From Patescibacteria group bacterium (lineage in GTDB: Bacteria > Patescibacteriota > Minisyncoccia > UBA6257 > UBA9933), in the NCBI GenBank assembly GCA_038065955.1, contig JBBTPY010000003.1:39624-103623 (forward strand): a stretch of DNA of 64,000 nucleotides, written 5' to 3'. The position numbers and the translations under genes were made by a program. A model generated the notes under the pieces. The model was given only the letters and a program-made list of their open reading frames with translations, had not been told where the DNA came from and searched no databases. Shown here in pieces: positions 2,386-61,224 of the stretch; the stretch's first letter is position 1, and the number at the start of each line of letters is the position of its first letter.

Positions 2386-2685
2386 ATGTCGCGAAGTTCA
2401 AAAAAAGGTCCTTATATTGACCAAAAATTATTAAAAAAAATATCAAAGTTGAAACCCGATGATAAGACGGTAATTAATACTTGGTCGCGGGACAGCGAAA
2501 TTTCTCCTGAGATGATAGGGTTTATTTTCGGCGTTCATAACGGGAAAATTTTTATTCCGGTTAAAGTGACGGAAGATATGATTGGCCATCGTTTCGGCGA
2601 ATTCTCATTGACGAGAAAATTTGTCAGACACGGAGGAAAGATGCAGAAGGAATTGGAGAAAAAAGCGGTAGAACCGAAAAAATAA
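2386..2685 (+). CDS. rpsS: 30S ribosomal protein S19
   Basis: 99 aa, S19 motifs (GPYID, NGK.F.PV), operon position. Confidence 0.95.
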
Positions 2686-2686
2686 T

Positions 2687-3199
2687 ATGAAAATTCAAAT
2701 CGCAAAATTAAATTATCTTCATATGGCTCCGCGCAAGGTGCGGTTGATTGCCAATATCATAAAAGGCCTTTCGGTTAATGAAGCGGAGGCTCAATTGATG
2801 GTTAACCCGCAAAAAGCGGGCGGCCCTATTTTAAAATTATTGCGTTCGGCGGTTGCCAACGGCAAGCAGAAAGAATTAAAACCGGAAAATCTTATTGTTA
2901 AAGATATTAAAGTTGACCAGGGTCCGGTTTCAAAGCGTCATATGCCGAGAGCTCAAGGCAGAGCGACTTTAATTTTAAAAAGAAGCAGTCATATTACTTT
3001 AATTTTAGCCGAATCTCAAAATCCGAAAATTTCAAGATTTAAAATAATAAAACCACAAAGAGTTTCAAAGAGAGTTAAGGCTGGGATGGCAAGTAAAGAA
3101 GCGGGAATGGAAAAAATTGGCGGAAAAGAACCGGCGAAACCGGCAATAAAAGAAAAAGAAGGATTTATGAAAAAAATGTTCAGACGCAAAGTAGTTTAA
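2687..3199 (+). CDS. rplV: 50S ribosomal protein L22 (with K/E-rich C-terminal extension)
   Basis: L22-like core followed by a basic C-terminal tail; operon position. Confidence 0.9.
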   Translation: MKIQIAKLNYLHMAPRKVRLIANIIKGLSVNEAEAQLMVNPQKAGGPILKLLRSAVANGKQKELKPENLIVKDIKVDQGPVSKRHMPRAQGRATLILKRSSHITLILAESQNPKISRFKIIKPQRVSKRVKAGMASKEAGMEKIGGKEPAKPAIKEKEGFMKKMFRRKVV

Positions 3200-3217: not shown

Positions 3218-3901
3218 ATGGGGAAAAAAATCAGACCAAATTCATTTAGATTAGGAATAACAAAAGATTGGAGCTCTCGCTGGTTTCCGAAGGACAATAA
3301 TTTTAAATCTTATTTGGAAGAGGATGTTTTGTTGCGGAAAATAATCGGGGAAAAAATCGGCAGCGCCGGCATTGATAAAATAGACATAGAACGAGTCGGT
3401 AATAAATGCAGAATTTTAATAAAAGCCAGTCGGCCGGGATTAATTATCGGTCGAGGCGGCAAAGGGATTGAGGAGTTGACCAAAGCGCTTGAATCCGCTT
3501 TGAAAAAGCTTAGATTGAAAAAAGGCGTGAAAGAATCGCCGATTTTGAGCGTTAACATAGAAGAATTAAAGCGCTCGGATGTTTCGGCCAATGTTACGGC
3601 GCAGAATATCGCATGGGATATAGAAAGAAGAATGCCGTTTCGCCGAACGATAAAAAAATATCTTACTTCCATTTTACAAAATAAAGAAATTCAAGGGGCA
3701 AAAATTGAAATTGCCGGCAGATTGGACGGAAATGAAATTGCCCGGACGGAGCATTTGATAAAAGGACGCTTGCCGCTTCAGAAATTAAGGGCTAATATAG
3801 ACTACGGTCAAGCTACCGCTTTTACCACATATGGAACCGTTGGAGTAAAAGTATGGGTGTATAAAGGCGATATATTTGAAAAATCGGATAATAATAATTG
3901 A
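3218..3901 (+). CDS. rpsC: 30S ribosomal protein S3
   Basis: 227 aa, KH-domain S3 signature ([12 protein letters not shown]). Confidence 0.95.
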
Positions 3902-57427: not shown

Positions 57428-58657
57428 ATGCCGCTGTATAGTTATAAAGCCGTTGATAAAAATGGTTCGCCGACATCGGGAGAAATTTTGGCGGACAGCC
57501 GCGAAGAAGCGGTGGAAAATCTTTCGCGCGACGGATTATTGCCGATTATCGTTGAAGAAAAATCCGTCGGCAAGCTTTCGCAGTTTTCCGATTTGGCGCA
57601 ATTTTTTCCGTTTTTTCAGAAAATCGGCGCCATTGACAAAATTCTCTTAACCCGTTATTTGGCCGCGATTTTGAAAGCCGGCATCGGGTTGGCGGAAGCT
57701 TTGGAAATTATTTTAAACGACGCGAAAAAACCTTTGATTAGAAAAATTCTTCTGGAAATTAAAGCCGGCGTGGAAAGAGGGGAACCGCTTTCATCAATGT
57801 TCGCCGATTATCCGCGATATTTTTCCCCGATTTTTGTCGGGATGATAAAAGCCGGCGAACTTTCGGGCAGTTTGGAAAGCGCTCTGGAAAATCTTTCCGG
57901 CCAATTAATAAGGGATTACGACTTGTTAAAAAGGGTGAGAATGGCGATGATTTATCCGCTGATTCTTTTAATCGGTTCCGCCGGCATTATCGTGCTGATG
58001 ATGACTTTTGTTTTGCCGCGGATGGCGAAAGCTTTCAAAGGCATGCTCGCCGAATTGCCCCTGATTACGAGATTTTTTATCGCTTTAAGCGATTATTTAA
58101 GCAGAAGCCCGATTTTAACGATTTCCGTTTTTTTTATTTTAATCGCCGCGGGCTTTTATTTTTCCCGTTCGGTTTTCGGCAAAAAAATCATTTTCCGCGT
58201 TTTTGAAAAATTGCCGGTCGCTTCGGAACTTGTCAAGAAATTGGCACTGGCGCGTTTCAGCCGAACTTTCAAAAATCTTTTGGGAAGCGGCGTTTCGGCT
58301 ATTGAAGCGATTGAAATGAGCGCTTTAACGGTCGGCAATCCGACTTATCAGAAGTCGTTTTTGAATATTATGGAAGAATTAAAAAAGGGGTCAAATTTTT
58401 CCGCGGTTTTCAAATCGCGTCCCGCTCTTTACCCGAGTTTTTTTGCCAATATCATCGCCATCGGCGAACGAACCGGCACTTTGGAAAAATCGCTGGAAAC
58501 TTTAAGCGCGTTTTACGAAGAAGAAGTGGACGGACTTTTGAAAAATCTGGTTTCGCTTTTGGAACCGCTGCTGATTTTTGCAATGGGTATAATTGTGGCA
58601 ATGGTGGCTTTGTCCGTGCTTTTGCCGATATTCCGAATGGTCAGAATGTTTCAGTGA
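57428..58657 (+). CDS. pilC: type IV pilus/T2SS platform protein PilC (GspF family)
   Basis: 409 aa; duplicated GspF domains; 3 TM. Confidence 0.85.
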   Translation: MPLYSYKAVDKNGSPTSGEILADSREEAVENLSRDGLLPIIVEEKSVGKLSQFSDLAQFFPFFQKIGAIDKILLTRYLAAILKAGIGLAEALEIILNDAKKPLIRKILLEIKAGVERGEPLSSMFADYPRYFSPIFVGMIKAGELSGSLESALENLSGQLIRDYDLLKRVRMAMIYPLILLIGSAGIIVLMMTFVLPRMAKAFKGMLAELPLITRFFIALSDYLSRSPILTISVFFILIAAGFYFSRSVFGKKIIFRVFEKLPVASELVKKLALARFSRTFKNLLGSGVSAIEAIEMSALTVGNPTYQKSFLNIMEELKKGSNFSAVFKSRPALYPSFFANIIAIGERTGTLEKSLETLSAFYEEEVDGLLKNLVSLLEPLLIFAMGIIVAMVALSVLLPIFRMVRMFQ

Positions 58658-58666
58658 GGGTAAATT

Positions 58667-58695
58667 GACATCTAACATCTGACAACTGACATATT
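58667..58695 (+). repeat. heptamer tract AATTGAC ATCTAAC ATCTGAC AACTGAC upstream of a pilin gene
   Basis: direct reading; reverse-complement family of GTCAGAT. Confidence 0.85.
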
Positions 58696-58715
58696 AATAA
58701 TTTTAATAAAATATA

Positions 58716-59237
58716 ATGAATCAGATAAATAAATGTCAAAAGTCAGATGTCAGATGTCGTGTCAGCTGTCAGTTGTCTGGCTTCTCTCTTTTAGAATTGA
58801 TTTTGGTAATCGGAATTCTGGTTATTATCAGCGGTGTTGTTTCGCCATTTTTATTCGGCGGCAAAACTTCAATTGAAGTGGAGGAAGAAGCGAAAAAAAT
58901 AGCCGGCGTTTTGCGGCTGGCGCAAAATAAGGCGATGAGCCGCGAAGATGGATTAAGCTGGGGAGTTCATTTTGACAACATTACTTCAACGGAGCCGTTT
59001 TATGATTTTTTTCAGGGGAACAGCTATACGGCCGGCACTTCTACGGAACGATATTATTTATCCGGCGTCGTTGTTTTTCAAACGCCGGCAAGCGGCACTT
59101 CAACCGACATAATTTTTATTAAGCGCAGCGGCAGTTTGGCAAACGGAACGACTACGACTATTGCCGTAAAATCGCTTTCGCCGGAAATTATTAAAAATGT
59201 CATTATTTATCCAAACGGCAGGGTTAACGCGCAGTAA
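58716..59237 (+). CDS. type IV pilin-like protein with long repeat-encoded leader
   Basis: G|FSLLELILVIGILVI; 22-aa leader MNQINKCQKSDVRCRVSCQLSG; paralogous to 46483. Confidence 0.75.
   Translation: MNQINKCQKSDVRCRVSCQLSGFSLLELILVIGILVIISGVVSPFLFGGKTSIEVEEEAKKIAGVLRLAQNKAMSREDGLSWGVHFDNITSTEPFYDFFQGNSYTAGTSTERYYLSGVVVFQTPASGTSTDIIFIKRSGSLANGTTTTIAVKSLSPEIIKNVIIYPNGRVNAQ
58742..58781 (+). repeat. degenerate GTCAGAT heptamer repeat inside the pilin leader coding sequence
   Basis: gtcagat gtcagat gtcgt gtcagct gtcagtt gtctggc. Confidence 0.9.
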
Positions 59238-59239
59238 TC

Positions 59240-59917
59240 ATGAAAAATAAAGGCCAAATTTTGTCGGAACTTTTAATCGCCATTGCCGTCGGCGTGGTTT
59301 TAGCCGTTGTCGGGGCCCAGCTTATAATCGTCAGTTTGACTTCAACTAAAACTTCCAAAGAAAAAAGCGAGGCAATCGGTTTGGCGCAGGAAGGAATGGA
59401 GGCGACAAGGGCTATTATCCGCGGCAATGACGCGACATCGCAGGGTTGGAACAGAATTTATTTGCCGCCGGACGGAACGGGCAACGCTTCAACTTCAAAA
59501 GGAACCAACAGCCCTTGGCATCCGGAAATTATCGGCAATGTCTGGCAATTGGTTTCAAGCACCGAAACCATAGTTTTGGCGGGAGAGACATACACGAGAA
59601 AAATTATCATTGAAAATGTCTGCCGCAACGATACCGACGGAACGATAAGCGGCATTTCTCCTTGTACCGGAGGAAATTCGGACGACCCGACCACTCAAAA
59701 AATCACCGTCAGCGTTTCCAAAACGGACGCGCCGGACGTAAACTTAATCGCTTATATGAGCCGTTATATAAATGAATCAATGCTCCAAACCGGCTGGAAC
59801 GGGGGATTAAACGACGGGCCGTTTTCCGCCACTTCCACGACTAACACCAATTACGGCGCCAATACCGAAACAACTAAACTCGATTTAATAACAGAAATTA
59901 AATTAAAAACGCAGTAA
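59240..59917 (+). CDS. pseudopilin/minor pilin (prepilin-type N-terminal domain)
   Basis: MKNKGQILSELLIAIAVGVVLAV is a prepilin-like N-terminus; 225 aa. Confidence 0.7.
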   Translation: MKNKGQILSELLIAIAVGVVLAVVGAQLIIVSLTSTKTSKEKSEAIGLAQEGMEATRAIIRGNDATSQGWNRIYLPPDGTGNASTSKGTNSPWHPEIIGNVWQLVSSTETIVLAGETYTRKIIIENVCRNDTDGTISGISPCTGGNSDDPTTQKITVSVSKTDAPDVNLIAYMSRYINESMLQTGWNGGLNDGPFSATSTTNTNYGANTETTKLDLITEIKLKTQ

Positions 59918-59924
59918 AATTTAA

Positions 59925-59941
59925 CTGCGGGACTTGGATTC
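59925..59941. repeat. 17-bp direct duplicate of the tRNA-Gln 3' end (att-like)
   Basis: ctgcgggacttggattc is identical to 60293..60309. Confidence 0.8.
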
Positions 59942-60021
59942 TCTTCGGCCTTCGGCTCGCATTGAGCTCGCCGAAATGCTCAGAGCAAGTCATCCAAGCC
60001 CACAATAAATCGTCAAACTCA

Positions 60022-60276
60022 TTACAAGCTATTATGTATTAAGGCAAATTTCTTCTTCCTACTCCATCCTTTAAGTTGCCGCTCTCGTTTTGCGGCTTCT
60101 GTTTTTGAATTAAATTGCTCTTTATAAACCATTTCCAATTTAGAAAACTTTTTTGTAAAAAATGATTTCTTATTTCTGTGCTCTATAAATCTAGACTCTA
60201 AATCATTTGTCATACCGACGTAAAAAGTTTTCTTATCGCAATTTAATATATAGATATACCACATAATAGCTTGCAC
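60022..60276 (-). CDS. GIY-YIG nuclease family protein
   Basis: 84 aa: YIYILNCDKKTFYVGMTNDLESRFIEHRN...ALIHNSL matches the GIY-YIG fold motifs. Confidence 0.8.
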   Translation of the reverse strand: MQAIMWYIYILNCDKKTFYVGMTNDLESRFIEHRNKKSFFTKKFSKLEMVYKEQFNSKTEAAKRERQLKGWSRKKKFALIHNSL

Positions 60277-60292
60277 TGAGCTTGTCGAAGTG

Positions 60293-60363
60293 CTGCGGGA
60301 CTTGGATTCGAACCAAGATAGATGCCTTCAAAGGGCACAGTCCTACCGTTAGACGATCCCGCA
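60293..60363 (-). tRNA. tRNA-Gln (anticodon TTG), U1-A72, G73, no encoded CCA
   Basis: reverse complement folds as acceptor TGCGGGA/TCCCGCA, anticodon stem GTGCC/GGCAT with loop CTTTGAA, T arm CTTGG-TTCGAAT-CCAAG. Confidence 0.8.
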
Positions 60364-60368
60364 AAAAT

Positions 60369-60396
60369 AAATACCGACTAGTGATAGTCGGTATTT
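60369..60396. terminator. bidirectional hairpin terminator
   Basis: aaataccgacta-gtga-tagtcggtattt flanked by A-runs and T-runs. Confidence 0.7.
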
Positions 60397-60441
60397 ATTT
60401 TACTCGTTTTTTTATATTCCGTAAATCCCTAACACCATATT

Positions 60442-61224
60442 TTAATTTGCCCAGATAACAAAAGTGAAAAGTTTTTCTCCTCTCCCTAAATCGCGTCCAA
60501 ATAGAGAGTGATTTTCCCGACTATCTTTGCGAAGACTCTTACCCCAAGCGGACGGATTGTCTAAATCAACATTATCACCGTTGCCTTTTGGAAGCGCCGC
60601 CCCGCCAGCAAGCTTACTAGCAAGAGTGGTAGTCCCGTCAAGATGGGTGTAAATTAACTCAAGCTGGTCGTAATCGTGCTGATTTGGATGCTGATTAGTT
60701 GACGGGTCGTTGGTGTAATCCATGCAAGTGCCGAGATTTGGATTATCAAAATTTTCGTCCTGATGGTCAAGCCCGAGCGTGTGGCCGACTTCCTGACACA
60801 TAACCAAATTTTTCCAAGCTTCGGTGTTATAGGTTGGCGTATTGAAATAAGTATCGTTTACTTTAACGGCGCCTTTAGTAATATGATCGCCGCTTACCCA
60901 AATTTGAGCTACGCCTAACCAACCGTTTCTGCCGTATTTTTTATTGCACACTTCTACGCGGCCGTTAACGGGTTTGCAGTTTTTTAAATACGCTCCGGAA
61001 ACAATTGCCGTGTCTAAAACCGAAGACACGCTCCAATCGCCGGAAGTAGTGGAAAGATAAGCGTCCCAATCAGAAGAAAGATTGTCTCCCAATTTCAATG
61101 TAAGGGGATTACTAGTTCGCGCCCAGTGATAATTGCCCCAGGAATGGATAGCGTTTACGATTGACGCGGAAAGAATAACGACAGCCGCCAATACTCCAAA
61201 AATTACCGAATATTTTTTAATCAT
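60442..61224 (-). CDS. secreted metzincin-like protein with a variant zinc motif (QExxHxxGxxH plus Met-turn)
   Basis: signal peptide; CQEVGHTLGLDHQ...GTCMDYT. Confidence 0.5.
   Translation of the reverse strand: MIKKYSVIFGVLAAVVILSASIVNAIHSWGNYHWARTSNPLTLKLGDNLSSDWDAYLSTTSGDWSVSSVLDTAIVSGAYLKNCKPVNGRVEVCNKKYGRNGWLGVAQIWVSGDHITKGAVKVNDTYFNTPTYNTEAWKNLVMCQEVGHTLGLDHQDENFDNPNLGTCMDYTNDPSTNQHPNQHDYDQLELIYTHLDGTTTLASKLAGGAALPKGNGDNVDLDNPSAWGKSLRKDSRENHSLFGRDLGRGEKLFTFVIWAN

Follow-up and report, generated by a model that had tools for sequence, protein, structure and literature searches.

A GIY-YIG nuclease cassette behind a tRNA-Gln gene as a probable miniature mobile element of Patescibacteria

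The locus, analyzed within a 64-kb stretch of DNA (the window), is composed of a tRNA-Gln(UUG) gene, a small GIY-YIG nuclease gene, and a second copy of the tRNA 3′ end, all on one strand (Table 1). The motif CTGCGGGACTTGGATTC is exact at both repeat positions, with a start-to-start distance of 368 nt, confirming the duplication of the tRNA-Gln 3′ end claimed in the original prediction, and the bracketed small GIY-YIG gene is likewise present, encoding 80 aa. A search for other copies, proposed at the same time, revealed no third site in the window even with up to two mismatches; shuffled sequences contain a mean of 0.01 matches, and none of 100 shuffles reaches two. Because ARAGORN places the tRNA at 60292-60363, the proximal 17-mer corresponds to tRNA nt 57-73, spanning the 3′ part of the T-loop, the 3′ strands of the T-stem and the acceptor stem, and the discriminator. 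The Rfam tRNA match (60293-60363, 59.2 bits, E=1.9e-11) is the sole match between 58000 and 62000 at a permissive E-value threshold, and with nothing but the tRNA returned, a described intron (group I or group II) or a known structured RNA was rejected as the identity of the cassette. The window contains one copy of the cassette, and the GxxExxY gene noted 3.4 kb downstream has no bearing on it.

Table 1. Features of the tRNA-Gln locus, in window positions
Feature	Position	Strand	Basis
Sigma-70-like promoter TTTACG-17-TAAAAT upstream of the tRNA	60397..60425	-	consensus match only
tRNA-Gln(UUG), complete, CCA not encoded; host/target gene	60292..60363	-	ARAGORN
Proximal 17-mer, tRNA sense GAATCCAAGTCCCGCAG = tRNA nt 57-73	60293..60309	-	
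Left terminal inverted repeat, CAC + TTCGACAAGCTCAGTGCAAGC; 1 mismatch to the family consensus TTCGGCAAGCTCAGTGCAAGC	60269..60292	-	
GIY-YIG nuclease gene, 80 aa, minimal stand-alone UPF0213 / Slx1-like type	60022..60264	-	Pfam, family alignment
Inner right-end repeat GCTTGTAATGAGTTTGACGA, inverted left-repeat copy over the stop codon	60010..60029	-	
Anti-repeat TGTGGGCTTGGAT, complementary to the 17-mer	59992..60004	-	
Outer right terminal inverted repeat region ACTTGCTCTGAGC...GCCGAAGGCCGAAGA with additional internal hairpin	59942..59991	-	
Distal 17-mer	59925..59941	-	
Terminator-like hairpin with T-run	59910..59929	-	

The open frame at 60022-60276 on the minus strand matches the Pfam GIY-YIG family (PF01541) over residues 5-76 (E=3.5e-16, 59.7 bits, cut-off 22.6). 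Alignment with 37 homologues places the true start at the ATG at 60264, giving an 80-aa protein beginning MWYIYIL. The catalytic residues Tyr5, Tyr15, Gly17, Arg25, His29, and Glu61, whose retention was to be checked, are all present and are invariant or at least 90% conserved across 38 sequences including the window protein; from its sequence, the protein is a predicted GIY-YIG nuclease with its catalytic residues kept. A Pfam scan of the 80 aa revealed no further domain, a separate DNA-binding module (NUMOD, IENR1, or HTH) being absent, and the NCBIfam model grpIintron_endo scores 22 bits, below its cut-off of 56. The closest solved relatives by sequence are the UPF0213 proteins BH0048 (1ZG2, E=7e-11) and EF2693 (1YWL, E=4e-10). 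Across the family, the cassette ORF is under purifying selection (dN/dS 0.06-0.25), with synonymous sites close to saturation, and the Patescibacteria clade is characterized by identities of at least about 50% and the motif SFFTKKFS. Longer homologous "proteins" were rejected as real products, being gene-caller read-through of the tRNA and the terminal inverted repeat (TIR). No transposase of a known class (DDE, HUH, serine, tyrosine, or Cas1) is encoded in the cassette, where the GIY-YIG domain forms the only ORF.

The original prediction described the repeats and the gene correctly and missed the conserved TIRs that define the element. The family left inverted repeat, ACTTCGGCAAGCTCAGTGCAAGC, is conserved over 21-23 nt, and its motif occurs with zero or one mismatch in 56 of 77 related loci, even though synonymous positions of the ORF are nearly saturated. 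The right-end family consensus, G(C/T)TT(A/G)CCCTGAG(C/T)TT(A/G)CCGAAGG, is the reverse complement of the left TIR. In the window, the inner right-end repeat is contained in a 39-nt inverted repeat (59999-60037 and 60261-60299, 77% complementary) and, in long-form homologues, codes for the C-terminal tail ACTEFAEAL, while a degenerate copy of the left-TIR motif lies at 59955-59975, inside the outer right TIR region. The resulting element, ~310-450 bp in length, comprises a left TIR, one GIY-YIG gene of 80-100 aa, and one or two inverted TIR copies at the right. One distant relative (L147) carries both hairpin arms upstream of the ORF, so the repeats are not always terminal.

The promoter upstream of the tRNA, identified by its sequence, is presumed to drive the whole tRNA-cassette transcription unit, and the interval separating tRNA and ORF showed no promoter-like site. 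A cassette without its own promoter would be transcribed from that of the tRNA, through the original tRNA terminator that now lies past the distal copy. With its final 5 nt, the distal 17-mer supplies the 5′ stem arm of this terminator, making the distal junction consistent with a native junction of tRNA 3′ end and terminator. The spacer described earlier as hairpin-rich is indeed highly folded, with the 91-nt 3′ region at z=-4.9 and the whole 456-nt unit at z=-7.9. Within it, the anti-repeat resembles the 5′ strands of acceptor stem and T-stem combined and is predicted to pair with the distal 17-mer into a minihelix resembling the top half of a tRNA. The duplication could then act at the RNA level, under any DNA-level model: at the 3′ end of the co-transcript, RNase P, RNase Z, and the CCA-adding enzyme would act on the minihelix, releasing or stabilizing the nuclease mRNA with the host tRNA unharmed. 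The 13-bp stem and strong fold in the window, the shared promoter, the terminator placed after the distal copy, and anti-repeats that follow lineage-specific 18-mer differences (GGAT/GGAC; L027, L046) are in keeping with such a role. Anti-repeats pair more strongly with their own repeat than with those of other loci (mean -14.5 versus -11.7 kcal/mol; in the best 10% in 16 of 39 loci), but an ungapped test is barely above its control (369 versus 350 Watson-Crick pairs). The covariation being significant by duplex energy but weak when ungapped, the anti-repeat is regarded here as characteristic of a subset of loci. A clear anti-repeat is found in only about a quarter of them, and pairing explains neither the identity at unpaired T-loop positions nor the constant start of the copy at nt 57. 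An RNA-level explanation of the repeat is very improbable.

A census of 160 related loci, 77 of which carry a left TIR and enough flank to be judged, revealed the same arrangement behind many tRNA genes. A same-strand tRNA 3′ end adjoins the cassette in 48 of these 77, and 36 of the 48 repeat nt 57-74 of their own tRNA exactly (at least 16 nt) after the right inverted repeat. The element begins directly after tRNA nt 74 on the same strand and is followed by the second copy of nt 57-74, leaving the host tRNA complete. A genome scan gave a matching picture: in ~50 of 80 loci a same-strand tRNA precedes the GIY-YIG gene by 28-150 nt, and an exact repeat of the tRNA end (last 16-19 nt) begins 12-80 nt past the stop codon; control stretches, 400 nt upstream of each tRNA, yielded matches of at most 8 nt with a single 11-nt exception. 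The hosts cover 12 anticodons, Gln(UUG, CUG), Asn, Tyr, Ser(GCU, GGA, UGA), Glu(UUC, CUC), Lys, His, and Asp, across which the duplication boundaries at nt 57 and 74 are identical; the distal match of the His host is partial (11 nt). Genes for tRNAs with group I introns also serve as hosts, the introns lying inside the tRNA and outside the cassette. As a negative control, the TIR is absent in 72 of the 160 loci, mostly homologues of at most 50% identity, and such homologues mostly lack a tRNA as well. Several species pairs share a segment consisting of the tRNA and the element only, with the elements located at synteny breakpoints.

These recurring boundaries bear out the proposed miniature mobile element with an att-like duplication of a tRNA 3′ end. 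The alternative offered with it, a decayed element, does not hold: the locus contains no remnant of an integrase-type island and no room for an integrase, and its ORF is under selection. Tyrosine-integrase islands do leave partial duplications of tRNA 3′ ends, and the window holds a single copy, as expected for an attL/attR scar of a decayed island in tRNA-Gln with the GIY-YIG gene as leftover cargo, or for a chance repeat beside an ordinary gene. However, repeat spacing in ~40 loci from different species is confined to 310-450 bp for a single cassette and to ~720 bp at most for two in tandem. No integrase lies between the repeats in any of these loci or in the 368 bp of the window, which hold the 80-aa ORF alone. 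TIRs adjoin the repeats, purifying selection acts on the ORF, independent decay would not converge on one architecture at 12 tRNA types, and the chance expectation is 0.01. Both versions are effectively refuted and retain scarcely any credibility.

Derivatives of the element include tandem copies (L003, identical; L014, with a partial second copy; and L027), minis without an ORF (L101 and L025), and copies with frameshifted ORFs (L073-L078). Nested minis are present within the left TIR, and in each case the 12-14 nt lying 5′ of the insertion point are duplicated so as to flank the mini.

In all likelihood, these loci represent a family of mobile GIY-YIG cassettes specific for tRNA 3′ ends. The window locus itself is probably one copy of this Patescibacteria miniature mobile element family, with SegB-like tRNA targeting and duplication at insertion. 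Like the T4 GIY-YIG homing endonuclease SegB, the nuclease would recognize the part of tRNA genes that extends from the TΨC loop to the 3′ end, with recognition or nicking depending on the GGTTCGAATCC box, and would cut at or near the edges of this segment, 56/57 and 74/75. Joining of the element, with the TIRs as its cis-acting ends, would place the 17-18-bp segment on both sides as a target-site duplication. The direct repeats could later allow clean loss that restores an intact tRNA gene, with a predicted empty junction joining GGTTCGAATCCAAGTCCCGCAG to TTAAATTTTACTGCG. SegB is much larger than 80-100 aa and, like Seg/I-TevI-type enzymes, should possess a separate DNA-binding module; an 80-aa protein without such a domain counts against the preferred reading. 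A specific staggered cut as the origin of the duplication is a tentative proposal to which we give somewhat less than even weight; known GIY-YIG homing endonucleases such as SegB leave 2-nt 3′ overhangs (PMC2330249) and not an 18-nt stagger.

Spread by double-strand-break repair would dispense with transposition. An intact tRNA gene would be cut and repaired from the filled allele, with tRNA nt 1-56 as the left homology arm and the 18-nt distal copy, inherited from the donor, kept as the right. The protein tree, which groups by tRNA type (a same-type nearest neighbour in 21 of 37 cases versus 7.5 expected; maximum of 18 in 2,000 permutations), accords with such homing, as do switches of tRNA type that occur mostly between similar tRNAs (Gln UUG/CUG, Glu/Lys, and Ser/Tyr). 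One pair of loci (L030 and L041) retains the distal copy at 18 of 18 positions despite a dS of 0.73 and diverged flanks; this exceeds neutral expectation and points to constraint or regeneration, not a neutral scar, again as homing would have it. SegB provides a precedent, and a minimal nuclease would need no transposase chemistry. However, homing alone cannot create a matched duplication at a new tRNA species, and the 12 anticodon types carry their own exact 18-mers. Cutting at 56/57 should give a donor-derived proximal copy, hence chimeric tRNAs, and cutting at 74/75 a permanently foreign distal copy, while the classical form assigns no role to the strongly conserved TIRs or to the 12-14-nt duplications around nested minis. 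We judge homing an unlikely account of the family.

Duplication at insertion, the reading we prefer, meets its main exceptions among 29 of the 77 TIR-bearing copies. These "orphans" have no tRNA on the left, where the match is limited to the last 4-9 nt, and carry instead left modules of 40-110 nt that are conserved between unrelated contexts, yet a perfect tRNA-like 18-mer follows their right TIR, which a pure target-site-duplication model does not predict. At other loci (L186-L190 and L121), the distal 18-mer is not that of the host tRNA but that of another tRNA-Gln, as though carried along. Both groups would fit a cut-and-paste movement of the element together with its distal 18-mer, in which cuts after nt 74 at both copies are followed by ligation behind another ...AGC end, the distal copy travelling as cargo. 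SegB cleavage directly past the tRNA 3′ end is compatible with this route, which would also yield clean excision and a restored tRNA gene. However, each jump should leave an old-type distal copy, whereas exact agreement with the local tRNA is seen at Ser, Tyr, Glu, Lys, Asp, and most Asn hosts. In addition, the repeat pair is matched in each of five closely related elements whose tRNA-Gln hosts differ in the 18-mer. Plain end-joining likewise does not predict conserved left modules in unrelated contexts, and the probability of this route is low.

Several candidate explanations of individual orphans were rejected. The convergent gene at one orphan (L058), taken at first as a minus-strand gene interrupted by the element, has its own stop 8 nt past the repeat, and an apparent likeness to the C-terminus of a 364-aa protein (L021) was attributed to chance, tblastn having given no other matches. 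Short reverse-strand ORFs of the orphans gave no Pfam match, and an extended inverted duplication of the right end was not found as a source of their left modules.

Empty sites in relatives, a check suggested with the original prediction, indicate that the cassette is not universal. Two closely related loci (L097 and L098) retain the order dnaX-protein-tRNA-Gln(UUG), with the neighbouring protein 91% identical and the tRNA 3′ half identical, and lack the cassette behind the tRNA. The downstream flank of L097 differs, so this site is not a clean pre-insertion allele. The "CAC" following its tRNA was rejected as an excision footprint, as element-free tRNA genes there commonly continue with C-A. 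ENA and Logan contigs of the same strain are filled wherever they span the site. Several Logan contigs stop exactly at the repeat edges, which would fit mixed alleles but does not prove them; such ends have more than one cause, because other breaks fall close to a strain-level compensatory SNP pair within the anticodon stem. JGI metagenome contigs were also searched for exact matches to the distal junction, a query able to detect filled and empty alleles alike; no hit was obtained, and the search was uninformative.

A literature search that included the raw motif strings found no description of this tRNA-targeting element family. If our preferred reading is correct, tRNA genes across the Patescibacteria, a very large and uncultured radiation, are routinely colonized by ~0.35-kb selfish cassettes that spare the tRNA through a second copy of its last 18 nt. 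Many annotations as "GIY-YIG nuclease family protein" would thereby be explained, as would many spurious N- or C-terminal extensions such as ...EHFGKLSASQ... and ...ACTEFAEAL..., and the uncharacterized UPF0213 / Slx1-like minimal nucleases would acquire a function together with a natural substrate in the 3′ end of tRNA genes. It would also offer a compact, directly testable nuclease-plus-site system whose specificity is a universal tRNA feature. The elements can, in addition, break metagenome assemblies at tRNA genes.

A bolder reading, which we regard as rather unlikely while worth stating, takes the 80-100-residue nuclease as the sole protein of an autonomous class of TIR transposons that make target duplications and are accompanied by ORF-less minis. 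The enzyme would read the T-arm and acceptor region of the tRNA by DNA structure or sequence and nick at 56/57 and 74/75, and the 18-nt segment would serve as an att site that needs no integrase, in insertion as well as in clean excision. If true, prokaryotic transposases would gain a new catalytic class, and the element could be the smallest known DNA to move autonomously. Related minimal GIY-YIG genes that are flanked by TIRs in other phyla would be further branches of this transposon class, and a mirror-image family at tRNA 5′ ends would be another.

Among known systems, T4 SegB shares with the cassette a GIY-YIG catalytic domain and the status of a free-standing selfish gene among tRNA genes, in its case the T4 tRNA gene cluster. 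The SegB recognition site centres on GGTTCRANTCC, the universal TΨC box, and the enzyme often cleaves right at the tRNA 3′ end (PMC2330249). This recognition segment is the segment duplicated here (nt 57-74). In contrast, SegB belongs to a phage, spreads through homologous repair during co-infection, and has neither TIRs nor a tRNA-end duplication, whereas the cassette protein is a bare catalytic domain of 80-100 aa, belongs to the UPF0213 / Slx1-like branch, and resides in bacterial chromosomes.

Islands and prophages with tyrosine integrases also insert at tRNA 3′ ends, leave the tRNA intact, and are flanked on both sides by direct repeats of the tRNA 3′ end. The cassette differs in lacking an integrase, in its size (~0.35 kb versus >5 kb), in repeat edges fixed at nt 57 and 74 for any tRNA, and in ends formed by inverted repeats around a nuclease as the only gene. 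With insertion sequences and MITEs it shares TIRs, a flanking direct duplication, a single small ORF, ORF-less minis, and nested and tandem insertions, whereas its 17-18-bp duplication is longer than usual and its target is one structural position of tRNA genes. To our knowledge, no described IS family uses a GIY-YIG transposase, the known classes being DDE, DEDD, HUH, serine, tyrosine, and Cas1.

Free-standing homing endonuclease ORFs of fungal mitochondria, such as the GIY-YIG ORF behind atp6 in Allomyces, bring a replacement gene end and displace the resident one, and spread of the cassette by double-strand-break repair would resemble them. As in the cassette, a nuclease gene lies at the 3′ end of an essential gene, that end is present twice, and the host remains functional; the mitochondrial cases differ in their protein-coding hosts, in-frame fusion, mitochondrial genomes, and absence of TIRs.

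GIY-YIG ORFs are also present in non-intron insertions, neither group I nor group II, of CPR rRNA genes (Tsurumaki et al. 2024; PMC11270868). Both cases concern GIY-YIG genes in insertions at structured-RNA genes of the same bacterial group (Candidate Phyla Radiation = Patescibacteria), although the rRNA insertions lie inside the genes at scattered sites, and "tRNA" occurs 0 times in the text of PMC11270868. The minimal domain itself, free of accessory domains, is that of UPF0213 / COG2827, the prokaryotic "Slx1-like" cluster (Dunin-Horkawicz et al. 2006; PMC1564403), represented by 1ZG2 and 1YWL. Known members of this cluster have no assigned function or mobile context, whereas the Patescibacteria clade, unlike distant members, is linked to TIRs and tRNA 3′ ends.

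The 17-nt sequence CTGCGGGACTTGGATTC has two exact copies in the 64-kb window, as originally noted, spaced 368 nt apart from start to start, against a chance expectation of 0.01; no further copy is present in the window, even with two mismatches allowed. In tRNA sense, it reads GAATCCAAGTCCCGCAG and corresponds to nt 57-73 of tRNA-Gln(UUG), comprising the second half of the T-loop, the 3' strands of the T-stem and acceptor, and the discriminator. The stretch that the two copies enclose holds a single real gene, oriented like tRNA-Gln, which encodes the noted GIY-YIG domain protein (Pfam, E=3.5e-16). Comparison with 37 homologues places the true start at the ATG at 60264, giving an 80-aa protein that retains all catalytic positions. 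Judging from its sequence, this protein is a minimal stand-alone GIY-YIG superfamily member of the UPF0213/Slx1-like branch; among solved structures, 1ZG2 and 1YWL, neither of known function, are the closest to it. More than 160 homologues were found, all named ones from Patescibacteria. The ORF has a dN/dS of 0.06-0.25, indicating purifying selection, with synonymous sites near saturation.

The cassette follows the tRNA with no promoter-like site between tRNA-Gln and the ORF, and ATT separates the left repeat from the ORF. The inner inverted motif copy belongs to a 39-nt, 77% inverted repeat that flanks the ORF on both sides. Compared with shuffled sequence, the unit as a whole is much more strongly folded (z=-7.9), and its 3' part folds with the anti-repeat, the segment complementary to the 17-mer, paired to the distal 17-mer (z=-4.9), forming a predicted stem that resembles the acceptor/T-arm "top half" of a tRNA. 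The neighbouring genes encode a platform protein of the T2SS/T4P type (T2SSF), a pair of pilin-like proteins, of which one shows an N-terminal methylation motif that is weak and below threshold, and a conserved 260-aa protein that is secreted-looking, carries an HTLGLDH metalloprotease-like motif, has no Pfam family and has >8000 Patescibacteria homologues.

Features of the window copy and of related loci fetched for comparison (L numbers)
Feature	Locus	Position	Strand	Remark
Promoter-like site	window	60425-60397	minus	upstream of tRNA-Gln
Perfect 17-bp inverted repeat, 4-nt loop	window	60364-60401		between 260-aa gene and tRNA-Gln promoter region; terminator-like on plus strand
tRNA-Gln(UUG), complete	window	60292-60363	minus	contains right-hand 17-mer copy
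Proximal 17-mer	window	60293-60309		
CAC + motif TTCGACAAGCTCAGTGCAAGC (left repeat)	window	60292-60269	minus	directly 3' of discriminator
GIY-YIG ORF	window	60264-60022	minus	
Inner inverted copy of left motif	window	60029-60010	minus	overlaps stop codon
Anti-repeat TGTGGGCTTGGAT	window	60004-59992	minus	complementary to 17-mer
Second, outer inverted motif copy and extra hairpin	window	59991-59942	minus	
Degenerate motif copy	window	59955-59975		inside outer inverted repeat region
Distal 17-mer	window	59941-59925	minus	after outer inverted copy
Terminator-like hairpin	window	59929-59910	minus	stem includes last 5 nt of distal copy
Neighbouring genes	window	57428-59917, 60442-61224		
ORF-less minis / solo left repeats	L101	1778-1818, 1916-1949		
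ORF-less minis / solo left repeats	L025	~5232	minus	reverse-strand numbering
ORF-less minis / solo left repeats	L006	4040-4070		
ORF-less minis / solo left repeats	L035	~3340-3470		
Nested hairpin insert	L018	2805-2980		
Intron-bearing host tRNAs	L028, L029, L032, L036	about 2500-2906		
Two different cassettes in tandem	L053	1557-2370		
Upstream GIY-YIG family	L001	2600-2916		
Upstream GIY-YIG family	L010	2583-2884		
Upstream GIY-YIG family	L045	2447-2766		
Upstream GIY-YIG family	L057	1-259		
Upstream GIY-YIG family	L066	356-716		
Orphans (include)	L005, L011, L019, L020, L022, L031, L033, L035, L038, L039, L043, L047			
Orphans (include)	L058, L076, L106, L108, L109, L111, L113, L116-L118, L130, L185			

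A scan of species-representative genomes for homologues yielded 80 loci, to which 80 metagenome loci were later added. A same-strand tRNA gene lies 28-150 nt upstream in ~50 of the 80 genome-scan loci, and ~40 of these ~50 carry, 12-80 nt past the stop codon, an exact second copy of that tRNA's final 16-19 nt; the 400 nt upstream of each tRNA match ≤8 nt, with one 11-nt exception. The repeat boundaries, T-loop nt 57/58 on one side and nt 73/74 on the other, are always the same whatever the tRNA. Hosts are tRNA-Gln(UUG, CUG), Asn, Tyr, Ser(GCU, GGA, UGA), Glu(UUC, CUC), Lys, His and Asp, together with tRNAs whose genes are split by group I introns (Rfam RF00028, 61-90 bits; tabulated loci and L056, L075, L078, L080, L114 and L120) and were missed by ARAGORN for that reason. 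The left end of the element is nearly invariant (ACTTCGGCAAGCTCAGTGCAAGC), and the right end, G(C/T)TT(A/G)CCCTGAG(C/T)TT(A/G)CCGAAGG, is its reverse complement and adjoins the distal repeat. Among the 160 loci, 77 have a left repeat and sufficient flank for judging: in 56 of them this repeat shows 0-1 mismatch, and a tRNA 3' end adjoins it in 48, 36 of which carry an exact repeat of ≥16 nt. Another 72 loci lack the left repeat and act as a negative control; most are homologues of ≤50% identity, a group mostly without a tRNA.

Investigation of related genomes revealed a close relative from the same aquifer in which the order dnaX-protein-tRNA-Gln(UUG) is kept and the cassette is absent; the flanking protein is 91% identical, the tRNA 3' half is identical, and a terminator directly follows the tRNA. 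Tandem full or partial copies occur at three loci (L003, L014 and L027). ORF-less derivatives, consisting of left and right repeat ends (30-100 nt) or solo left repeats, lie directly behind tRNA-Ile and tRNA-Tyr (both in L101) or tRNA-Lys (L025), or in intergenic regions, and some are missing the distal tRNA copy. Small hairpin inserts are nested in the left repeat before the ATG at five loci (L018, L071, L044, L032 and L026), each flanked by a 12-14-nt duplication (CTCAGTGCAAGC) of the sequence 5' of the insertion point; the L018 insert comprises three tandem 59-nt units. ORFs are frameshifted in L073-L078, and in several species pairs homology is confined to tRNA and element, with both flanks differing. 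In the window's own strain, every contig spanning the site is filled. Some Logan contigs end exactly where the proximal copy has its outer edge or the distal copy its inner edge, a pattern expected of a filled/empty mixture in a de Bruijn graph, though not proof of one. Two loci of this strain (L083/L091) show two strain-level compensatory SNPs that turn a U-A pair of the tRNA-Gln anticodon stem into C-G (window ~60323 and ~60337); in some assemblies, scaffold gaps and contig ends fall at this place. A single tRNA-Ser(GGA) in L053 is followed by two different GIY-YIG cassettes in tandem, the first of which differs at its left end (TCCTTCGCTAAAGCTAC...), and a tRNA 3'-end copy follows each.

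The evidence points to a living selfish element, not a scar. Of the original reading as a miniature mobile or decayed element, the mobile part is supported, given the cassette-free relative, tandems and minis, and purifying selection on the ORF speaks against the decayed scar. An integrase scar is excluded by the spacing, 310-450 bp for single cassettes and at most ~720 bp for tandem pairs; no integrase is ever present between the repeats (~40 loci with the repeat).

The element lies directly after tRNA nt 74, flanked by its host's own nt 57-74, and leaves the tRNA intact; its ends are inverted repeats, and it is the distal copy that has the native terminator context. The cassette would be co-transcribed from the tRNA promoter. 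Its nuclease may target the tRNA-gene segment from the TΨC loop to the 3' end, by precedent of T4 SegB. This GIY-YIG homing endonuclease requires the TΨC box GGTTCRANTCC for recognition, and its cleavage is often right at the tRNA 3' end (PMC2330249). The duplication would be generated at insertion, like a target-site duplication, and the direct repeats could permit clean loss. We prefer duplication at insertion because 12 anticodon types each have their own exact repeat with identical boundaries, and because a group of five closely related elements, at tRNA-Gln genes that differ in their 3' ends, shows a matched repeat pair in every case. Models of an inherited or carried copy alone cannot yield such host-matched pairs.

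Three rivals stay alive because of orphan copies, foreign distal copies, a conserved distal copy and clustering by tRNA type. Orphans, 29 of the 77 copies, have no tRNA on the left, where the match is limited to the last 4-9 nt (e.g. GGAGCAC), and still have a canonical tRNA-like 18-mer after the right end; one (L185) belongs to the window's own clade (81% identity). Their left modules (40-110 nt) are conserved in related groups in unrelated genomic contexts. On the reverse strand, the repeat-encoded "ACTELAE" frame runs on for 16-49 codons, giving short ORFs (e.g. VLAKWDDFR... or VLRxxDxVRTYF) without a Pfam match. Five independent assemblies (L186-L190), whose protein shares 85% identity with that of the window, have a host tRNA-Gln(CUG) ending in GAGTCCTAGTCCCGCAGC and, ~75 nt after the stop codon, the distal copy GAGTCCAAGCCCCGCAGC, which exactly matches the 18-mer of L004's host, tRNA-Gln(UUG); L121 likewise has a distal 18-mer unlike its host's and equal to that of L054. 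Thus, on occasion, the distal copy can move along with the element, or it can remain as a relic of an earlier host sequence. These foreign copies and the orphans favor cut-and-paste of the element with its distal copy, which we nonetheless consider improbable. In the protein tree, the nearest neighbor has the same tRNA type in 21 of 37 cases versus 7.5 expected, and switches are mainly between similar tRNAs. This clustering suggests a homology-dependent component and favors homing by break repair with homology arms inside the tRNA, in our view an unlikely but not negligible route. In the pair L030/L041, element and downstream gene diverged in parallel (89-90% amino-acid identity, dS 0.73) and the adjacent flank diverged, yet the distal 18-mer is 18/18 in both, implying constraint or regeneration. 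An RNA-level role for the distal minihelix seems very improbable. Matched duplications at new tRNA species and the conserved terminal repeats are left unexplained by cut-and-paste, break-repair homing and the minihelix alike; duplication at insertion remains our preferred reading.

Related designs were also observed. Just upstream of the same tRNA genes, and in the same orientation, is another minimal GIY-YIG family, divergent in sequence (31-44% identity to the window protein), whose stop codon overlaps or almost touches tRNA nt 1. A partial tRNA 5' copy on its outer side (nt 1-12, hairpin and nt 12-23 in L001; nt 9-52 in L066) makes it a mirror image of the 3'-end element. Higher-GC, more distant homologues outside this clade (39-50% identity; among L122-L184, e.g. 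L150, L141, L144, L152 and L154) have long inverted repeats, GTCATCCTGAGC...CGAAGGA upstream and TCCTTCGAC...GCTCAGGATGAC downstream. Because these share core motifs with the Patescibacteria repeats, minimal GIY-YIG genes flanked by terminal inverted repeats may be widespread beyond Patescibacteria. L147 has tRNA-Gln and an exact 18-nt repeat, yet both hairpin arms lie upstream of the ORF.

Text and motif-string searches, with partial literature coverage, found no published description of a tRNA-tail GIY-YIG element. GIY-YIG ORFs also occur in CPR rRNA insertions other than group I and group II introns, in a report that makes no mention of tRNA genes (PMC11270868). We rate the element as a free-standing GIY-YIG selfish gene, a kind already known; that it represents a new class of transposon is less likely but a serious prospect. 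In behavior it comes nearest to SegB by its target, the tRNA gene 3' end, but its protein lacks a DNA-binding module. Like tRNA-integrating islands, it has an att-like duplication that preserves the tRNA, but it has no integrase; like IS/MITE elements, it has inverted repeats, a duplication and minis, but no transposase of a known class.
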